From NCBI GenBank assembly GCA_963702845.1, contig OY969763.1, positions 1,440,001-1,504,000 on the forward strand: a DNA stretch of 64,000 bases. Reading direction: 5' to 3'. The position numbers and the translations under genes are program-made. Of the stretch, positions 24,898 through 33,565 are shown piece by piece. The first letter of the stretch is position 1. Every line of letters starts with the position of its first letter. The notes under the pieces were generated by a model that was not told where the DNA came from, searched no databases, and worked only from the letters and a program-made list of their open reading frames with translations. Origin of the DNA: an uncultured Verrucomicrobiae bacterium. Its GTDB lineage: Bacteria > Verrucomicrobiota > Verrucomicrobiia > Limisphaerales > Palsa-1400.

Positions 24898-25305
24898 TTA
24901 GTGGCAGCCGCAGCCAGAGCCGCAGGAGCCGCCTTCAAAATCTTTTTCTTCCGGCAAACGGCCGAGTTCGAAAGTCTTGGTGAGATATTTATTTACGGAA
25001 TCCTGCATCTCGTGCATTTGCTGTTGGGCTTCCACGAAATTTTTCGCGACAGGATTACTGAAGAACTTCTCGCGTTGCTTCTCGAACGCTTCGACTTCCG
25101 TGTTTTCAAGCTGCACGCCTTGTTGTTGCTTATGCTGCAGGTATTGACCTTTTTCGCTGAGGTCCTGGTACATCTGCTGCGCTTCGGTGTTGATCATGAA
25201 TTTGTCCATGTTCGCGCGGATGGTCTGAAACTCGGGCTGTTTCAAAATCGTTTCGCAAAGTTCGCGCGTCTTCTGGATCAACGTTTCATTGGTCTGTGTA
25301 TGCAT
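24898..25305 (-). CDS. YlbF/YmcA (Com_YlbF) family regulator
   Basis: Helical Q/E-rich protein with ELCETILKQPEF and NPVAKNFVEAQ; C-terminal GGSCGSGCGCH. Confidence 0.8.
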   Translation of the reverse strand: MHTQTNETLIQKTRELCETILKQPEFQTIRANMDKFMINTEAQQMYQDLSEKGQYLQHKQQQGVQLENTEVEAFEKQREKFFSNPVAKNFVEAQQQMHEMQDSVNKYLTKTFELGRLPEEKDFEGGSCGSGCGCH

Positions 25306-25446
25306 AAAGGTATATCAGTATCGGCGAGTGGCCGCTTTTTGGCAATCTGCCAGCAAGCCATGGCGGGAGCCAGTCGAATTATATAACGGAGCGGTATTCA
25401 GTGACTTGAAACCGTAAGGGGTCGCAACTCGCTCTCCTTACAAATG

Positions 25447-25516
25447 TGTAGGGCATTCCCCCTCAGGTAAAACCATGATTCACCTTGCAGACGCTTTTAC
25501 GACGCTGGTCTATTCT
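25447..25516 (+). promoter_or_regulatory. promoter of candidate sRNA copy 1
   Basis: TGTAGGGC...AAACC...TTGCAGACG-N17-TATTCT; same spacing as copy 2. Confidence 0.55.
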
Positions 25517-25522
25517 GGCGTC

Positions 25523-25571
25523 GCAGTAGAGTTAGTTTTCATAGGCGCCCCGGGTGGGGCGCCATTTTTTT
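25523..25571 (+). ncRNA. candidate ~50-nt small RNA, copy 1
   Basis: GCAGTAGAGTTAGTTTTCATA, then hairpin GGCGCCCC-GGGT-GGGGCGCC, then T7. Confidence 0.6.
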
Positions 25572-25719
25572 GCCCGCGAAGAGTTTGCTTTGGCCTGTTC
25601 ATGTTCTGGTTTGCATTCCGACTTCTGTTTGTCAGTTTCGAACATCAGAACATCTCGGGCTTGCTTCTACAGTTCGGTCAGGAGCCTCCATTAACAGGTC
25701 GTAAGGCCTGACCCGAGGT

Positions 25720-25789
25720 TGTAGGGCCAAACCTTCCAACACAAACCTCAGTTCCCCTTGCAGACACAATTTCCGCTCTTACCTATGCT
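25720..25789 (+). promoter_or_regulatory. promoter of candidate sRNA copy 2
   Basis: TGTAGGGC...AAACC...TTGCAGACA-N17-TATGCT, exactly 273 bp downstream of the copy-1 motifs. Confidence 0.55.
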
Positions 25790-25796
25790 AGGCAGC

Positions 25797-25843
25797 GCAG
25801 TAGAGTTAGTATTCACAGGCGCCCCGGGTGGGGCGCTTTTTTT
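25797..25843 (+). ncRNA. candidate ~47-nt small RNA, copy 2
   Basis: GCAGTAGAGTTAGTATTCACA, the same hairpin and T7; 39/41 nt identical to copy 1. Confidence 0.6.
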
Positions 25844-25963
25844 GTGTACGCAGCAGTCCGCGTGATTGCGCTCTCAGTGGCGGGGCGAAGATCAAAATAC
25901 ATTTGTGCAATAGCGCGGCGGGTCTACAATCGCCATCACACCAGAAGAATCGAACAAAAAAAC

Positions 25964-26923
25964 ATGAATCGTATTGCCTATTCCCTGCTTTGCGCGCTCG
26001 CATTCGCATCCACCGCATGTTTGGGCGGAGAACTGAATTTTTCACTCGCACCAAATTTCTTTGAACATGATCCCGATCACCAGCCGCTTGGCCCGTGCCA
26101 TGGTGGGGTGGTAATTGATAAGGCCGGGAACATGTATGTGACGACCGACACCGCGCGCGGCATCGTGGTGTTTACGCCGAAAGGTAAATTCCTGCGCGCC
26201 TTTGGTCCAAAAGGGCTTCACGGCCTGGAACTTCGGAAAGAAGGTGGCAAGGAATATATCTACGGGGCGCGCCCGGGGGACCATGAAGTCGTAAAGATCA
26301 ATCTAGCCGGCGAAACTCAATGGACGATCACTTGCCCGATGGAGTCAGGCATTTTTAAAGAAGCGAAAGATTTCCATCCGTGCGCGGTCACGGTCGGACC
26401 CGATGGCGCCATCTTCGTCGCCGATGGCTATGGATCGAACTACGTTCTGAAATTTGATAAAAACCGCAAATTCGTAAAGGCCTTCGGCGGTCCCGGAGAA
26501 GCGGAAGGAAAATTCAAAACGTGCCATGGAATTGCGCTGGACACGCGACTGAAAAAACCGCTCTTGCTCATTTGCAACCGCAACAACAATCGGGTCGAGT
26601 ATTGGGACCTTGACGGTAACTTCGTCAAAGTGATCCAAAAAGATCTCCGGATGCCAGCCGCCGTAAATATCCGTGGCAAGTACGCCGTGTTTCCCGAATT
26701 ACAGGGACGGGTCACCGTCCTCGACGAAAAAGGCAACATCGCCGCGCAAGTGGGAGACAATCCCAACGACAAACAGCGCGCCAATTTTGGGTTGCCGCCC
26801 GATCAATGGAAAGATGGGATCTGCAACTCGCCGCACGGAGCCTCGATCGACAAGGACGGAAATCTGATTGTTACGGAATGGAGCAAATTTGGCCGAGTGC
26901 AAAAATTCGTCCGGACAAAATAG
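25964..26923 (+). CDS. secreted NHL-repeat beta-propeller protein
   Basis: Signal peptide; repeated HG motifs, FVADGYGSNYV, FKTCHGIALD and SPHGASIDKDGNL. Confidence 0.82.
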   Translation: MNRIAYSLLCALAFASTACLGGELNFSLAPNFFEHDPDHQPLGPCHGGVVIDKAGNMYVTTDTARGIVVFTPKGKFLRAFGPKGLHGLELRKEGGKEYIYGARPGDHEVVKINLAGETQWTITCPMESGIFKEAKDFHPCAVTVGPDGAIFVADGYGSNYVLKFDKNRKFVKAFGGPGEAEGKFKTCHGIALDTRLKKPLLLICNRNNNRVEYWDLDGNFVKVIQKDLRMPAAVNIRGKYAVFPELQGRVTVLDEKGNIAAQVGDNPNDKQRANFGLPPDQWKDGICNSPHGASIDKDGNLIVTEWSKFGRVQKFVRTK

Positions 26924-29508: not shown

Positions 29509-29592
29509 ATGGAAAACCTCATTGTCGGCGGTGTCGCCCTCGCGCTGTTCATTTATTTGTTCGTGGCAATGGTGCGGCCGGAAAAATTCTAA
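29509..29592 (+). CDS. kdpF: K+-transporting ATPase subunit F (absent from the ORF track)
   Basis: MENLIVGGVALALFIYLFVAMVRPEKF with the YL..A..RPEKF signature. Confidence 0.9.
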   Translation: MENLIVGGVALALFIYLFVAMVRPEKF

Positions 29593-29599
29593 GGACCTT

Positions 29600-31516
29600 A
29601 TGCAATCTTCAGGCTGGATTCAATTTGTCATCTTCATCGTTGCTCTGACGGCGATCACGAAACCGATGGGGCTTTATTTAATGCAGGTGCTCGATGCGAA
29701 GGGGCGGACGTGGTTCGACCCGGTGCTGCGGCCGTTGGAACGGTTGACGTATCGCGTCATGGGTGTGGATCCGAACAAGGAGCACGATTGGAAGCATTAC
29801 ACATGGGCAATGCTACTGTTTAGTCTGGTCGGCTGTTTGTTCACCTACGCGATTTTGCGACTGCAGCACCTGCTGCCATTGAACCCGCAGGGGTTTGGTG
29901 CGCTTTCGCCGGATTTGGCGTTTAACACGGCGGTCAGTTTTACGACGAACACGAATTGGCAGTCGTACTCCGGCGAATCCACCATGTCTTATTTGTCTCA
30001 GATGGTTGGGCTGGTATTCCACAATTTTACGTCTGCGGCGGTGGGCATCGCGATTGCGGCGGCGTTGGTGCGGGGGATTGCGCGGCATTCGATTAAGACG
30101 ATCGGGAATTTCTGGGTAGACCTGGTGCGCGTGACCTATTACCTGCTGCTGCCGATTTGCGTGGTGTTTGCGGTGGTGTTGGTGTCGCAAGGGATGATTC
30201 AGAATTTCAAGCCTTACACAAAAGCGAAGTTAACGGAGTCATTCACAATTCAAGTTCCGAAGACGGACGATAAAGGGCAGCCGGTGACGACGAATGTGGT
30301 GGTGATGGTGCAGACGCCCAAGTTGGACGCGCAGGGCAAGCCGGTTGTGGAAAATGGCGCGACGCTGATGGTGAATGTTCCGCAATTGGATGCGAAGGGA
30401 CAGCCGGTGATGACGAATATGCCGGTGATGGTGGACCAGAAGGTGGAGGAGCAAGTTATTCCGCAAGGGCCAATGGCGTCGCAGGTGGCGATCAAGATGT
30501 TGGGGACGAACGGCGGCGGTTATGCCAATGCGAATGCGGCGCATCCATTTGAAAATCCGACACCGCTTTCGAATTTTTTACAGATGTTGTCAATTTTTTC
30601 GATTGGCAGCGGGTTGACTTATTACCTGGGTCGAATGGTGAAGAATCAGCGGCACGGATGGACGGTTTGGGGCGTGATGATGGCGCTATTTATTGCGGGC
30701 GTGTTGTTGTGCTGGTGGGCTGAATCAGCGGGCAATCCGATTCACCAGCATCTAGGTGTGGCTGTGGCGGATGGGAATATGGAAGGTAAGGAAGTCCGCT
30801 TTGGAATCTTCAACTCTGCGCTGTTTGCCACAGTGACGACCGATGCTTCGTGCGGGGCAGTCAATTCGATGCACGATTCCTTCACTGCGCTCGGTGGGTT
30901 TGTGCCGCTATTCAATATCCAGCTCGGTGAAATTATTTTCGGCGGCGTTGGCGCGGGACTTTACGGCATGTTGGTGTTCGTCATTCTTGCCGTGTTCATT
31001 GCGGGGCTAATGGTTGGACGCACGCCGGAATATATCGGTAAAAAAATCGAATCGTATGAAGTTAAAATGGCGATGTTAGCTTTGCTGATTCTCGCCATCG
31101 ACATCCTTGTGTTCTCAGCCTGGGCATCGGTCAGTCAATCGGGTTTGGCTGGCCTGAACAACAATGGACCGCATGGGCTGAGCGAAATGCTTTATGCATT
31201 CAGCTCCGCCACTGGAAACAACGGCAGCGCGTTCGCCGGACTGACAGCCAACACACCGTGGTACAACACAACCCTGGGCATCGCCATGCTGATTGGCCGA
31301 TTCCTGATGATTGTTCCGATCATGGCGATTGCCGGGTCCCTGGCACGGAAGAAAGTCGCGCCCGCGAGCGCGGGGACATTTCCGGTTTCGGGTGGAACGT
31401 TTTTCATTTTGCTGACCGGCACGGTCATTCTGATTGGGGCCTTAAACTTTCTACCCGTGCTGACACTTGGCCCGGTCGTCGAACATTTCCTGACATTGCA
31501 GGGAAAACTCTTTTAA
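29600..31516 (+). CDS. kdpA: K+-transporting ATPase subunit A
   Basis: FNTAVSFTTNTNWQSY, KMLGTNGGG, SCGAVN and NNGSAFAGL; carries a repeat-rich insertion. Confidence 0.96.
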   Translation: MQSSGWIQFVIFIVALTAITKPMGLYLMQVLDAKGRTWFDPVLRPLERLTYRVMGVDPNKEHDWKHYTWAMLLFSLVGCLFTYAILRLQHLLPLNPQGFGALSPDLAFNTAVSFTTNTNWQSYSGESTMSYLSQMVGLVFHNFTSAAVGIAIAAALVRGIARHSIKTIGNFWVDLVRVTYYLLLPICVVFAVVLVSQGMIQNFKPYTKAKLTESFTIQVPKTDDKGQPVTTNVVVMVQTPKLDAQGKPVVENGATLMVNVPQLDAKGQPVMTNMPVMVDQKVEEQVIPQGPMASQVAIKMLGTNGGGYANANAAHPFENPTPLSNFLQMLSIFSIGSGLTYYLGRMVKNQRHGWTVWGVMMALFIAGVLLCWWAESAGNPIHQHLGVAVADGNMEGKEVRFGIFNSALFATVTTDASCGAVNSMHDSFTALGGFVPLFNIQLGEIIFGGVGAGLYGMLVFVILAVFIAGLMVGRTPEYIGKKIESYEVKMAMLALLILAIDILVFSAWASVSQSGLAGLNNNGPHGLSEMLYAFSSATGNNGSAFAGLTANTPWYNTTLGIAMLIGRFLMIVPIMAIAGSLARKKVAPASAGTFPVSGGTFFILLTGTVILIGALNFLPVLTLGPVVEHFLTLQGKLF

Positions 31517-31522
31517 TCGCGT

Positions 31523-33565
31523 ATGACACAAAAATCTGCATCACTTTTCGACTGGAAAATCGTCGGGCCGGCCATTGGCGATTCGTTTAAGAAGCTGAAT
31601 CCGAGGTTGATGATCAAGAACCCGGTGATGTTCGTGACCATGGTGGGCGCGGCACTGACAACGGCTGGCATTTTCACGACAGAAAAATCGCTGCGCGGGT
31701 TTGTCGTGCAATTGGCGATTTGGCTGTGGTTCACGGTGTTGTTTGCCAATTTCGCGGAAGCCGTCGCGGAAGGACGCGGGAAAGCCCAAGCGGCGAGTTT
31801 GAGAAAAGCCCGCAAGGAAACAATCGCGCGGCGGCTCCGCAACGGTCGTGAGGAACTGGTGCCCGCGCCTGATTTGCTGAAGGGCGATCAAGTAGTATGC
31901 GAAGCTGGCGACGTGATTCCGGCGGATGGCGACGTCGTGGAAGGCATCGCGAGCGTGGATGAAGCGGCGATTACAGGCGAGTCCGCGCCCGTGATTCGCG
32001 AGAGCGGCGGGGATCGTAGCGCGGTCACGGGCGGGACCCGGGTGTTGAGCGATCGGATTGTCATTCGCGTGACGACGGAGAAAGGGACGGGATTCCTGGA
32101 TCGCATGATTGCCTTGGTAGAAGGCGCGCAACGGCAGAAGACCCCGAATGAAATCGCCCTGACGATTTTGTTGTCCGCATTGACCCTGATTTTCCTGCTG
32201 GTCTGCATCACGCTGAAACCGTTCGGGATTTATTCCGGCGTGGCGTTCTCGATTCCTGTGTTGGTTGCGCTACTCGTGTGTCTGATTCCGACAACTATCG
32301 GCGGGCTTCTGAGCGCCATCGGCATCGCAGGCATGGATCGTGTGTTGCAACGCAACGTCCTCGCAATGAGCGGGCGTGCCGTTGAAGCCGCTGGTGATGT
32401 CGACGTGCTGCTTCTCGACAAAACTGGAACGATCACGCTTGGCAACCGCATGGCGACAGAATTTTTGCCGGCGCCAAACGTAAAACCCGAACGCCTGGCC
32501 GATGCTGCGCAGTTGGCATCTTTGGCAGATGAAACACCTGAAGGCCGCAGTATTGTGGTGCTGGCGAAAGAGAAATTTAATTTGCGGGCGCGCGAAGTTG
32601 CCGAGCCCCACGCGAACTTTGTGCCTTTCACCGCGCAGACGCGGATGAGTGGAGTGGATTTCCCAGCCCGTGACGGCCAACCGGCGCGTCGGATTCGCAA
32701 GGGAGCGGCCGATGCGATTCGCGCGTATGTGGATTTGGAAGGCGGAATTTTTCCAAAAGAAATCGGCCACGGAGTTGACGAAATTGCGCGCAGTGGCGGG
32801 ACACCGTTGGTAGTGGTCGAAGGCAACATGGTGCTGGGAGTGGTGCAGTTGAAAGACGTCGTGAAAGGCGGCATCAAGGAGCGCTTTGCGCATTTGCGGA
32901 AGATGGGAATTCGAACGGTGATGATTACAGGCGACAATGCGCTGACGGCAGCGGCGATTGCGGCGGAAGCCGGCGTGGATGACTTCATGGCGCAAGCGAC
33001 GCCGGAACAAAAGCTCAAGCGCATTCGCGAGGAGCAGGCCAATGGTCACCTCGTGGCGATGACAGGCGACGGCACCAATGACGCGCCTGCGCTCGCGCAA
33101 GCCGATGTCGGCGTTGCTATGAACACCGGCACGCAAGCAGCGCGCGAAGCGGGCAACATGGTCGACCTCGACAGCAATCCAACCAAGCTTCTCGACATCG
33201 TGGAGATCGGAAAACAGATGCTGATTACACGCGGATCGCTGACCACGTTCAGCATCGCGAACGACGTCGCCAAATACTTCGCAATCATTCCCGCGATGTT
33301 GATGGGGACGTTCCCGGCGATTGCCCCGATGAACATCATGCATCTGCACAGCCCCACCAGCGCGATCCTGAGCGCCATTATTTTTAATGCACTGGTCATC
33401 ATCGCACTCATCCCGCTTGCATTGCGTGGCGTTGCCTACAAACCAATGGGCGCCGTTGCGATTTTGCAGCGCAATTTGCTCATTTACGGACTCGGCGGAG
33501 TGGTCGTGCCGTTCATCGGCATCAAACTGATTGATGTGATTATCACCGCTCTCAACCTGGTTTAA
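31523..33565 (+). CDS. kdpB: K+-transporting ATPase subunit B
   Basis: DKTGT, TGES, KGA and [10 protein letters not shown] motifs. Confidence 0.97.

Follow-up and report, generated by a model that had tools for sequence, protein, structure and literature searches.

The window, a 64,000-nt stretch from the 6.03-Mb genome (G000) of an uncultured Verrucomicrobiae bacterium of the order Limisphaerales, contains a candidate sRNA region at 25306-25963 that is flanked by a minus-strand ylbF-family gene and a plus-strand NHL-repeat gene (Table 1). Two similar units lie in this region, and each presents the same order of elements: a 19-bp palindrome, weak −35 and −10 elements at a distance of 17 bp, a near-invariant single strand of ~20 nt, a GC hairpin and a U run. 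The protein encoded by the ylbF-family gene has a Gly/Cys/His-rich C-terminal tail, which could bind a metal or an Fe-S cluster. Farther along the window, at 29522-33565 (plus strand) and from 33568 onward, are genes that we take to be kdpA- and kdpB-like, and the gene after them opens with ATGAAAAC.

Table 1 Features of the two probable sRNA units and their neighbours (window positions), and the membrane protein genes found behind the same promoter in relatives
Feature	Position	Strand	Remarks
ylbF/ymcA-family gene	24898..25305	−	Pfam PF06133, E 3e-15; divergent from the sRNA promoters; neighbour only, outside the RNA
Copy 1 operator, 19-bp palindrome	25447..25465	strandless	Conserved in homologues; 17.1 bits
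Copy 1 A-tract (AAAACC)	25469..25474	+	Two near-invariant A columns in 33 homologues
Copy 1 CCTTGCA half-site-like motif	25483..25493	+	Overlaps −35-like CAGACG (25488-25493); 17-nt spacer to −10
Copy 1 −10-like hexamer TATTCT	25511..25516	+	TAnnnT conserved in homologues
Copy 1 predicted 5′ end (25522 or 25523) and single-stranded seed	25522..25542	+	Near-invariant in 31 aligned copies
Copy 1 intrinsic terminator	25544..25571	+	8-bp GC stem, 4-nt loop, U7
Copy 2 operator, 19-bp palindrome	25720..25738	strandless	19.6 bits; 12/19 identical to copy 1
Copy 2 CCTTGCA motif	25756..25766	+	Includes −35-like CAGACA (25761-25766)
Copy 2 −10-like hexamer TATGCT	25784..25789	+	In register with TATTCT of copy 1 at 273 bp
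Copy 2 seed with two changes (GUAUUCAC)	25796..25816	+	Complementary to GUG AAU AC
Copy 2 intrinsic terminator and U7	25818..25843	+	Hairpin fold and terminator call
NHL-repeat beta-propeller gene, downstream	25964..26923	+	Pfam PF01436; adjoins the RNA in 1/31 loci, so not conserved
Two-helix membrane protein genes in relatives	L064:1611-1814, L210, L212, L216, L217, L218, L221, L224, L227		Behind the same promoter

An earlier, sequence-only reading of this DNA had described two units 273-274 bp apart, and both were found where it had placed them. The RNA blocks at 25522-25562 and 25796-25836 are 39/41 identical, as it had stated, and this match has an E value of ~1e-11 against the whole genome. 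The shared motifs TGTAGGGC, AAACC, TTGCAGAC and TAT(T/G)CT recur at a common offset of 273 bp, and for the RNA block the offset is 274 bp. The bases between the motifs have diverged as described, each of the two intervening 17-nt stretches being only 8/17 identical between the copies; the operators are 12/19 and the motif around the −35 element 10/11 identical. In two respects the promoter looks different from that description. The motif TGTAGGGC turned out to be the left arm of a 19-bp palindrome, TGTAAGG-N5-CCTTACA, and the hexamer placed 17 bp from the −10 element in both units is CAGAC(A/G) rather than TTGCAG, which sits 20 bp away. The earlier reading mentioned neither this palindromic operator nor the complementarity to start codons described below. 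No third copy turned up in the genome, whether by blastn or when the 21-nt segment was searched with up to 4 mismatches.

Each unit is probably an sRNA gene of ~48 nt that is transcribed on its own, with predicted starts at ~25523 and ~25797. In the homologues, conservation resumes sharply 5-7 nt past TAnnnT at (C)GCAGUAGAGUUAGUUUUCAU, the predicted +1, and continues through the hairpin to the U-run. The hairpin folds with −19.9 kcal/mol (z −3.3) in copy 1 and −19.6 kcal/mol (z −2.1) in copy 2. Both terminators were called by the σ70/terminator scan, and both promoters scored under its 9/12 σ70 threshold. The segment of ~21 nt that had been proposed to be single-stranded is unpaired in the centroid fold of copy 1 and partly paired in copy 2. 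Among 31 aligned copies, pairing in the stem is kept in 248/248 cells, and all eight stem changes are G-U wobbles on the plus strand that would be mismatches on the other strand. Covariation measures are equal to those of their shuffles because double-sided stem changes are absent. In the right arm of the hairpin, the sequence itself and not just the pairing is constant across these copies. With its own promoter, an intrinsic terminator and no conserved ORF, the module has, at the sequence level, the makeup of a trans-acting sRNA. The most diverged copy, a paralogue in G012 (L209), keeps the seed with a 2-base deletion and has a wholly different hairpin. This paralogue is located immediately upstream of the gene for a small Ala/Lys/Arg-rich protein (L209:1198-1551, minus strand), for which no Pfam family was found.

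A covariance model of promoter plus RNA, which was built from 31 copies, gave 35 hits of at least 67 bits in 26 of the 31 family genomes; no hit at this score was obtained in G007, G015, G019, G021 and G023, which are 78-95% complete. By blastn, the core matched in 25/30 other genomes of the family and in 1/30 other families, and this last match (G038) was rejected as a homologue, being only a terminator. When 185,579 species genomes were scanned for an exact seed plus stem, 30 loci were recovered, whose contig positions coincide with those of the family hits; of these loci, 27 carry labels of Verrucomicrobiota groups (Limisphaerales where an order is given) and three carry other submitter labels. 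Most family genomes have one copy. Two dispersed copies occur in G003, G004 and G027, and the maximum of four is reached in G012; G030 gave two hits, both at contig ends, that may be one locus. The tandem pair is found in the host genome and in its sister genome G002, which also shares the two seed changes of copy 2, and G001, from the same genus, carries just copy 1. The tandem duplication on which the earlier reading was built is therefore present here without being the conserved feature, as it occurs in two of the three genus genomes and relatives are mostly single-copy. This distribution indicates that what is conserved is a family-wide single gene and that the tandem pair is a genus-level duplication.

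Beyond the family, none of 148 genomes from other families of the order yielded a full module. Fourteen of these genomes had weak model hits, and those inspected were discarded as promoter-only (four times in G161, and in G123 and G041) or as ordinary mRNA terminators. In 150 genomes of the wider phylum we found no full module and one weak terminator hit, and viral contigs gave 0 matches. Metagenomes were scanned with the 19-nt seed alone, which yielded 88 matches, 78 of them distinct. A promoter pattern is present in 63 of the 71 distinct matches with full upstream DNA and a terminator pattern in 68/78, while six distinct matches with neither look like chance; four further matches differ by one base in the stem, and in one of these a pair is broken. 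Since matches selected by the seed alone carry promoter and terminator, a real ~48-nt sRNA family is very likely. These promoters, together with the presence of two copies in the genome, also argue against the REP or MITE that the sequence-only reading had named as its alternative. Against Rfam, the element had no hit either in the window (E up to 10) or at 8 homologous loci (E up to 1), and no covariance model of Rfam 15 matched at its gathering score. The proposal of sibling sRNAs under selection gains support, in that homologues with upstream DNA keep promoter, seed and terminator while the spacers diverge. We conclude that the units very probably belong to a real, conserved and uncatalogued sRNA gene family.

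The surroundings of the RNA are variable. The first downstream gene is convergent in 11/25 loci and its identity is not conserved. Upstream, the RNA is divergent from larB-larC in 10/31 loci and from ylbF in 5/31; larB-larC, the other usual neighbours of the RNA, are nickel-pincer genes. In the search for distant homologues, with filters off, nothing turned up near larC in 25 loci.

In 33 copies, the upstream region shows the order palindrome, A-tract, CCTTGCAGACA, a free spacer of ~17 nt (counted from CAGACA) and TAnnnT. The promoter consensus is CAGACA-N17-TAnnnT with the palindrome upstream, its centre ~67 bp before the predicted start, and this promoter does not fit the σE consensus. We infer that the palindrome is an activator site and that its regulator is a NarL/FixJ-type activator. 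An operator matrix was trained on homologues, with the window's own copies and four other loci left out. In the host genome it found 15 sites of at least 16 bits, all intergenic (the genome is 20% intergenic by our own gene calls), and 25 sites of at least 14 bits, of which 21 are intergenic; as a control, thirty column-permuted matrices gave a mean of 5.6 intergenic sites (maximum 16). The palindrome thus appears to mark a putative regulon of about 15-25 intergenic sites in this genome, examples being C1:790262, 478138, 464166, 1576533 and 3602516. The genes facing the sites encode five large Ig-domain surface proteins, GH20 and GH25 hydrolases, a sulfotransferase, a glycosyltransferase locus, ribosomal L28 and proteins without a family, according to a Pfam scan of 36 proteins, 7 of which are at candidate seed-target loci.

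In relatives, where 20 of the 36 weak family hits were inspected, the whole promoter precedes a two-helix membrane protein of 65-68 residues in 9 genomes, secreted phosphoesterases (4), a histidine kinase and HU. The membrane protein is unannotated and carries an Arg-rich W-x-x-L-D-x-x-W-x-P-x-G-G motif; it has no Pfam family above the cut-off and only hypothetical Atlas neighbours, and tblastn did not find it in the host genome. The promoter also occurs without the RNA in three genomes of two other families (L186, L203, L206 and L208 in G161, L189 in G123 and L192 in G041), the four copies in G161 being near-identical. The occurrence of RNA-less promoters in other families points to an activator that predates the sRNA.

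The reverse complement of the seed opens with ATG AAA ACT AAC, and the 3′ part of the seed, GUUUUCAU, is complementary to AUG AAA AC. In the host genome, ATGAAAAC is the commonest 8-base gene start (81/5061) and MKT is the commonest tripeptide start. Gene starts (5061 genes) and signal peptides (by hydrophobicity) were called with our own heuristics, and the start-codon match was noticed after the fact. Complementarity to a start this frequent is seen in 0.06% of 92,206 intergenic 20-mers, 0.08% of base shuffles and 1.5% of 20,000 dinucleotide shuffles; it is also seen in 1/103 terminator-proximal 22-mers, presumably the sRNA itself. A signal peptide is predicted for 62% of the 76 longer genes that open with ATGAAAAC, compared with 24% of 3280 genes. 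A Shine-Dalgarno-like word precedes only 12% of ATG genes, versus 5% in a control window, which makes ribosome occlusion plausible, with the start codon as the shared handle.

Natural variants of the seed end in CAC (twice, in different genera), CAA, CAG or CGU instead of CAU, and these ends match GUG, UUG, CUG, or AUG by wobble. At one locus (L033), GGU replaces AGU and could pair with ACC as well as ACU. The variable base lies at the boundary of seed and stem and may simply be free. Only 2 genes start with the 8-mer of copy 2, and allowing an A-C mismatch raises this number to 15. Hfq (PF17209), ProQ and CsrA were not found in the host genome, which is 90% complete and contains five RRM genes.

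When 3280 genes were ranked by accessibility-corrected pairing, 50% of the top 100 predicted targets were signal-peptide genes, 47% were paired over the AUG and 29% were both. The same ranking of 33 shuffles gave 33%, 24% and 6.6 ± 3.2% (maxima 47, 47 and 13%). Without accessibility (1500 genes), 49% of the best 5% of partners were signal-peptide genes, against 27 ± 6% for 76 shuffles (maximum 45%). The best-scoring of these shuffles are those keeping GUUUUCAU, with nearly equal scores, and the signal rests on this one AU-rich 8-mer. By prediction against shuffles, then, an accessible conserved seed is complementary to the translation-start regions of mRNAs in trans. All of the top five targets are paired from +1 and have a predicted signal peptide, and in the best three the 3′ half of the seed lies on AUG AAA ACU and the 5′ half on Leu-Leu codons; one of these targets is a sulfatase by Pfam. 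Genes of the host genome that start at 1877605, 3692888 and 4915023, all on the minus strand, rank among the top predicted targets. A few mRNAs stand clearly apart at −19 kcal/mol. The top predicted target, a gene for a secreted DUF6923 protein (G000:C1:1877605-1877621, minus strand, L086), has a 13-nt perfect seed complement just upstream of the AUG in addition to a second site at the AUG. Signal-peptide genes make up 39% of the top 100 targets of copy 2, a figure that stands without a shuffle control. A 13-nt perfect complement of the copy 2 seed lies in the likely signal-peptide codons of a gene for a VPDSG-CTERM protein (G000:C1:3154815-3154827, L088).

No conserved individual target was found. 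The 35 other matches of at least 13 of 14 bases to the 3′ seed in the family are unrelated genes or non-starts; many are signal-peptide starts and many others are not starts. The syntenic neighbour larC has a pairing start and ranks 19 among the targets in the host genome. It was rejected as a conserved target, as among the 29 of 30 loci that could be parsed the duplex energies of 19 family orthologues (−8.3 to −16.4) and 10 non-family orthologues (−8.3 to −14.8) overlap and the Thr and Leu codons vary freely. There was also no sign of codon co-adaptation, as ACT accounts for 8.2% of the ATGAAAACNAA sites within the family (50/610) and for 6.6% of those in other families (30/454; p=0.35). Within the genome, an ACT excess of 25/81 (p=0.013) falls to 32/121 with looser start calls, and Met-Lys-Thr starts are common across the order. 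For the 5′ half of the seed, complement words occur in at most 0.5% of signal-peptide starts, and the 20 non-self perfect matches, versus 59 for the reversed control, are not orthologous. For neither half was a recurring near-perfect partner found across 31 genomes. We also discarded rRNA, tRNA, tmRNA and SRP RNA as partners, the pairing of −18.8 being no better than that of shuffles with rRNA (−17.2 ± 1.7). The element was likewise rejected as a displaced SRP RNA, which sits elsewhere.

The complementarity of the single strand to the first codons of many signal-peptide genes, start codon included, leads to the prediction of a translational block. We propose that a regulator would bind the palindrome and activate the sRNA, the same palindrome also preceding genes for secreted and surface proteins. 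The seed would pair over AUG AAA AC (Met-Lys-Thr) of many exported-protein mRNAs and occlude the ribosome, and the translation of many exported proteins would be blocked at once. Copy 2 might be a sibling with shifted specificity or an added dosage, and RRM proteins might take part in the action of the sRNA. Its role would be the remodelling of the exported and surface proteome when the activator fires. We give a probability of roughly 55% to this reading, in which the sRNA covers AUG-AAA-AC starts and thereby keeps exported-protein mRNAs from being translated; the predicted RNA is best described as a FopS/RybB-like repressor of such mRNAs in an Hfq-less, Shine-Dalgarno-poor host. A more far-reaching version is less probable but should be reckoned with. 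In it the sRNA would read a class label instead of single genes: by pairing with the signal-peptide start signature (AUG, Lys, Thr, Leu-Leu) it would throttle the whole class of exported proteins with no need of Hfq or Shine-Dalgarno sites, and its paralogues would be retuned by one base to GUG or UUG.

The pairing might instead serve one or a few specific partners, through gapped pairing with an mRNA or as an sRNA sponge, and the start match would then be partly incidental. All ~20 bases of the seed are near-invariant and the start-codon match accounts for the last 8-9 only, which fits such a partner, as do the few mRNAs at −19 kcal/mol with the second 13-nt site of the DUF6923 mRNA upstream of its AUG. 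Considering that no recurring near-perfect partner was found for either seed half in the 31 genomes, that larC failed and that rRNA, tRNA, tmRNA and SRP RNA paired at shuffle level, we see in this a minor possibility, though one to be taken seriously. It is improbable that the RNA acts by binding a protein, as an activator-induced decoy that titrates an RNA-binding protein, for example one with an RRM, in the manner of UvrY-activated CsrB/C. The operator does resemble the UvrY box TGTAAG-N6-CTTACA (PMC4682653), the right arm of the hairpin is invariant and five RRM genes are at hand. Such a decoy would not predict the bias toward start codons and signal peptides, the RNA has no repeated protein-binding motif, CsrA was not found, and the operator measures 19 bp rather than 18. 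The stem sequence is also generic, because ordinary mRNAs of other families have comparable GC hairpins at their ends, and this too counts against a decoy.

That the promoter also drives ordinary protein genes and that the neighbours differ between genera would suit a cis element, which might be a leader or attenuator acting on the gene downstream, or else a repeat in the DNA (REP, MITE or mobile promoter) with no functional RNA. We consider this very improbable, given the unconserved and often convergent (11/25 loci) downstream gene, the low copy number (mostly 1-2 per genome, at most 4, none in viral contigs), the tolerance of G-U stem changes on the plus strand only and the sharp onset of conservation at the predicted +1. 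Least credible is a tiny gene on the minus strand (MKTNSTA...) that would begin with the conserved segment, although ATG AAA ACT AAC TCT ACT GC can be read in most copies. The frames in the window continue for 10 and 22 unrelated residues after MKTNSTA and VNTNSTA, conservation ends after 7 codons with synonymous positions invariant, the L209 paralogue has its 2-base deletion within the segment, and promoter and U-run face the opposite way.

The locus thus offers a sharply defined regulatory RNA with its operator and putative regulon in a lineage for which the searches for Hfq, ProQ and CsrA were negative. Neither an earlier description of this sRNA family nor any described sRNA family for the lineage was found in the literature consulted, which consists mostly of non-subscription journals and in part of excerpts. 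If the start-codon reading is true, one seed would regulate many mRNAs in mostly Shine-Dalgarno-less bacteria by way of the AUG-Lys-Thr bias of signal peptides, and a scaffold of 48 nt that is independent of Hfq would have uses in engineering. Should the weaker reading alone be true, the RNA would still be a new family-wide sRNA for Rfam.

RybB pairs in the first codons of its targets. Together with MicA, MicV and VrrA, it belongs to the σE-dependent and Hfq-dependent envelope sRNAs, in which a short conserved seed acts against many envelope mRNAs and siblings share targets (PMC6694218), a likeness to the family described here. Unlike for RybB, MicA and MicV, Hfq was not found here, the promoter is σ70-like with a palindrome, and a sequence match is absent. 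The upstream region recalls the UvrY/GacA-CsrB/C system, in which the sRNA promoter likewise has an upstream palindrome with arms containing TGTAAG and CTTACA; the UvrY box is given as 18 bp at about 140-220 bp upstream (PMC4682653), whereas the palindrome here is 19 bp at about −67 and its spacing is off by one base. In contrast to CsrB and RsmZ, moreover, the RNA is only ~48 nt long, GGA repeats are absent and CsrA was not found.

FopS of Bacteroides thetaiotaomicron is described as a group of paralogous sRNAs with 12-15 copies per genome and σABfr promoters in Bacteroidaceae, which bind near the start codons of outer-membrane and envelope protein mRNAs and whose predicted targets are enriched in outer-membrane proteins (PMC11697453). 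FopS also has a 5′ single-stranded seed directly before a Rho-independent terminator, occurs in multiple copies and resides in an RRM-1 host, as does the present RNA (PMC11697453). The differences are the 1-4 copies, the palindromic operator and the restriction to one Verrucomicrobiota family, as well as the Verrucomicrobiota seed being predicted to lie over the AUG and codons 2-3 themselves. The comparison is one between the descriptions of the two families, and the Rfam search gave no match. If the start-codon reading is true, the family would be a Verrucomicrobiota parallel to FopS in Bacteroides.
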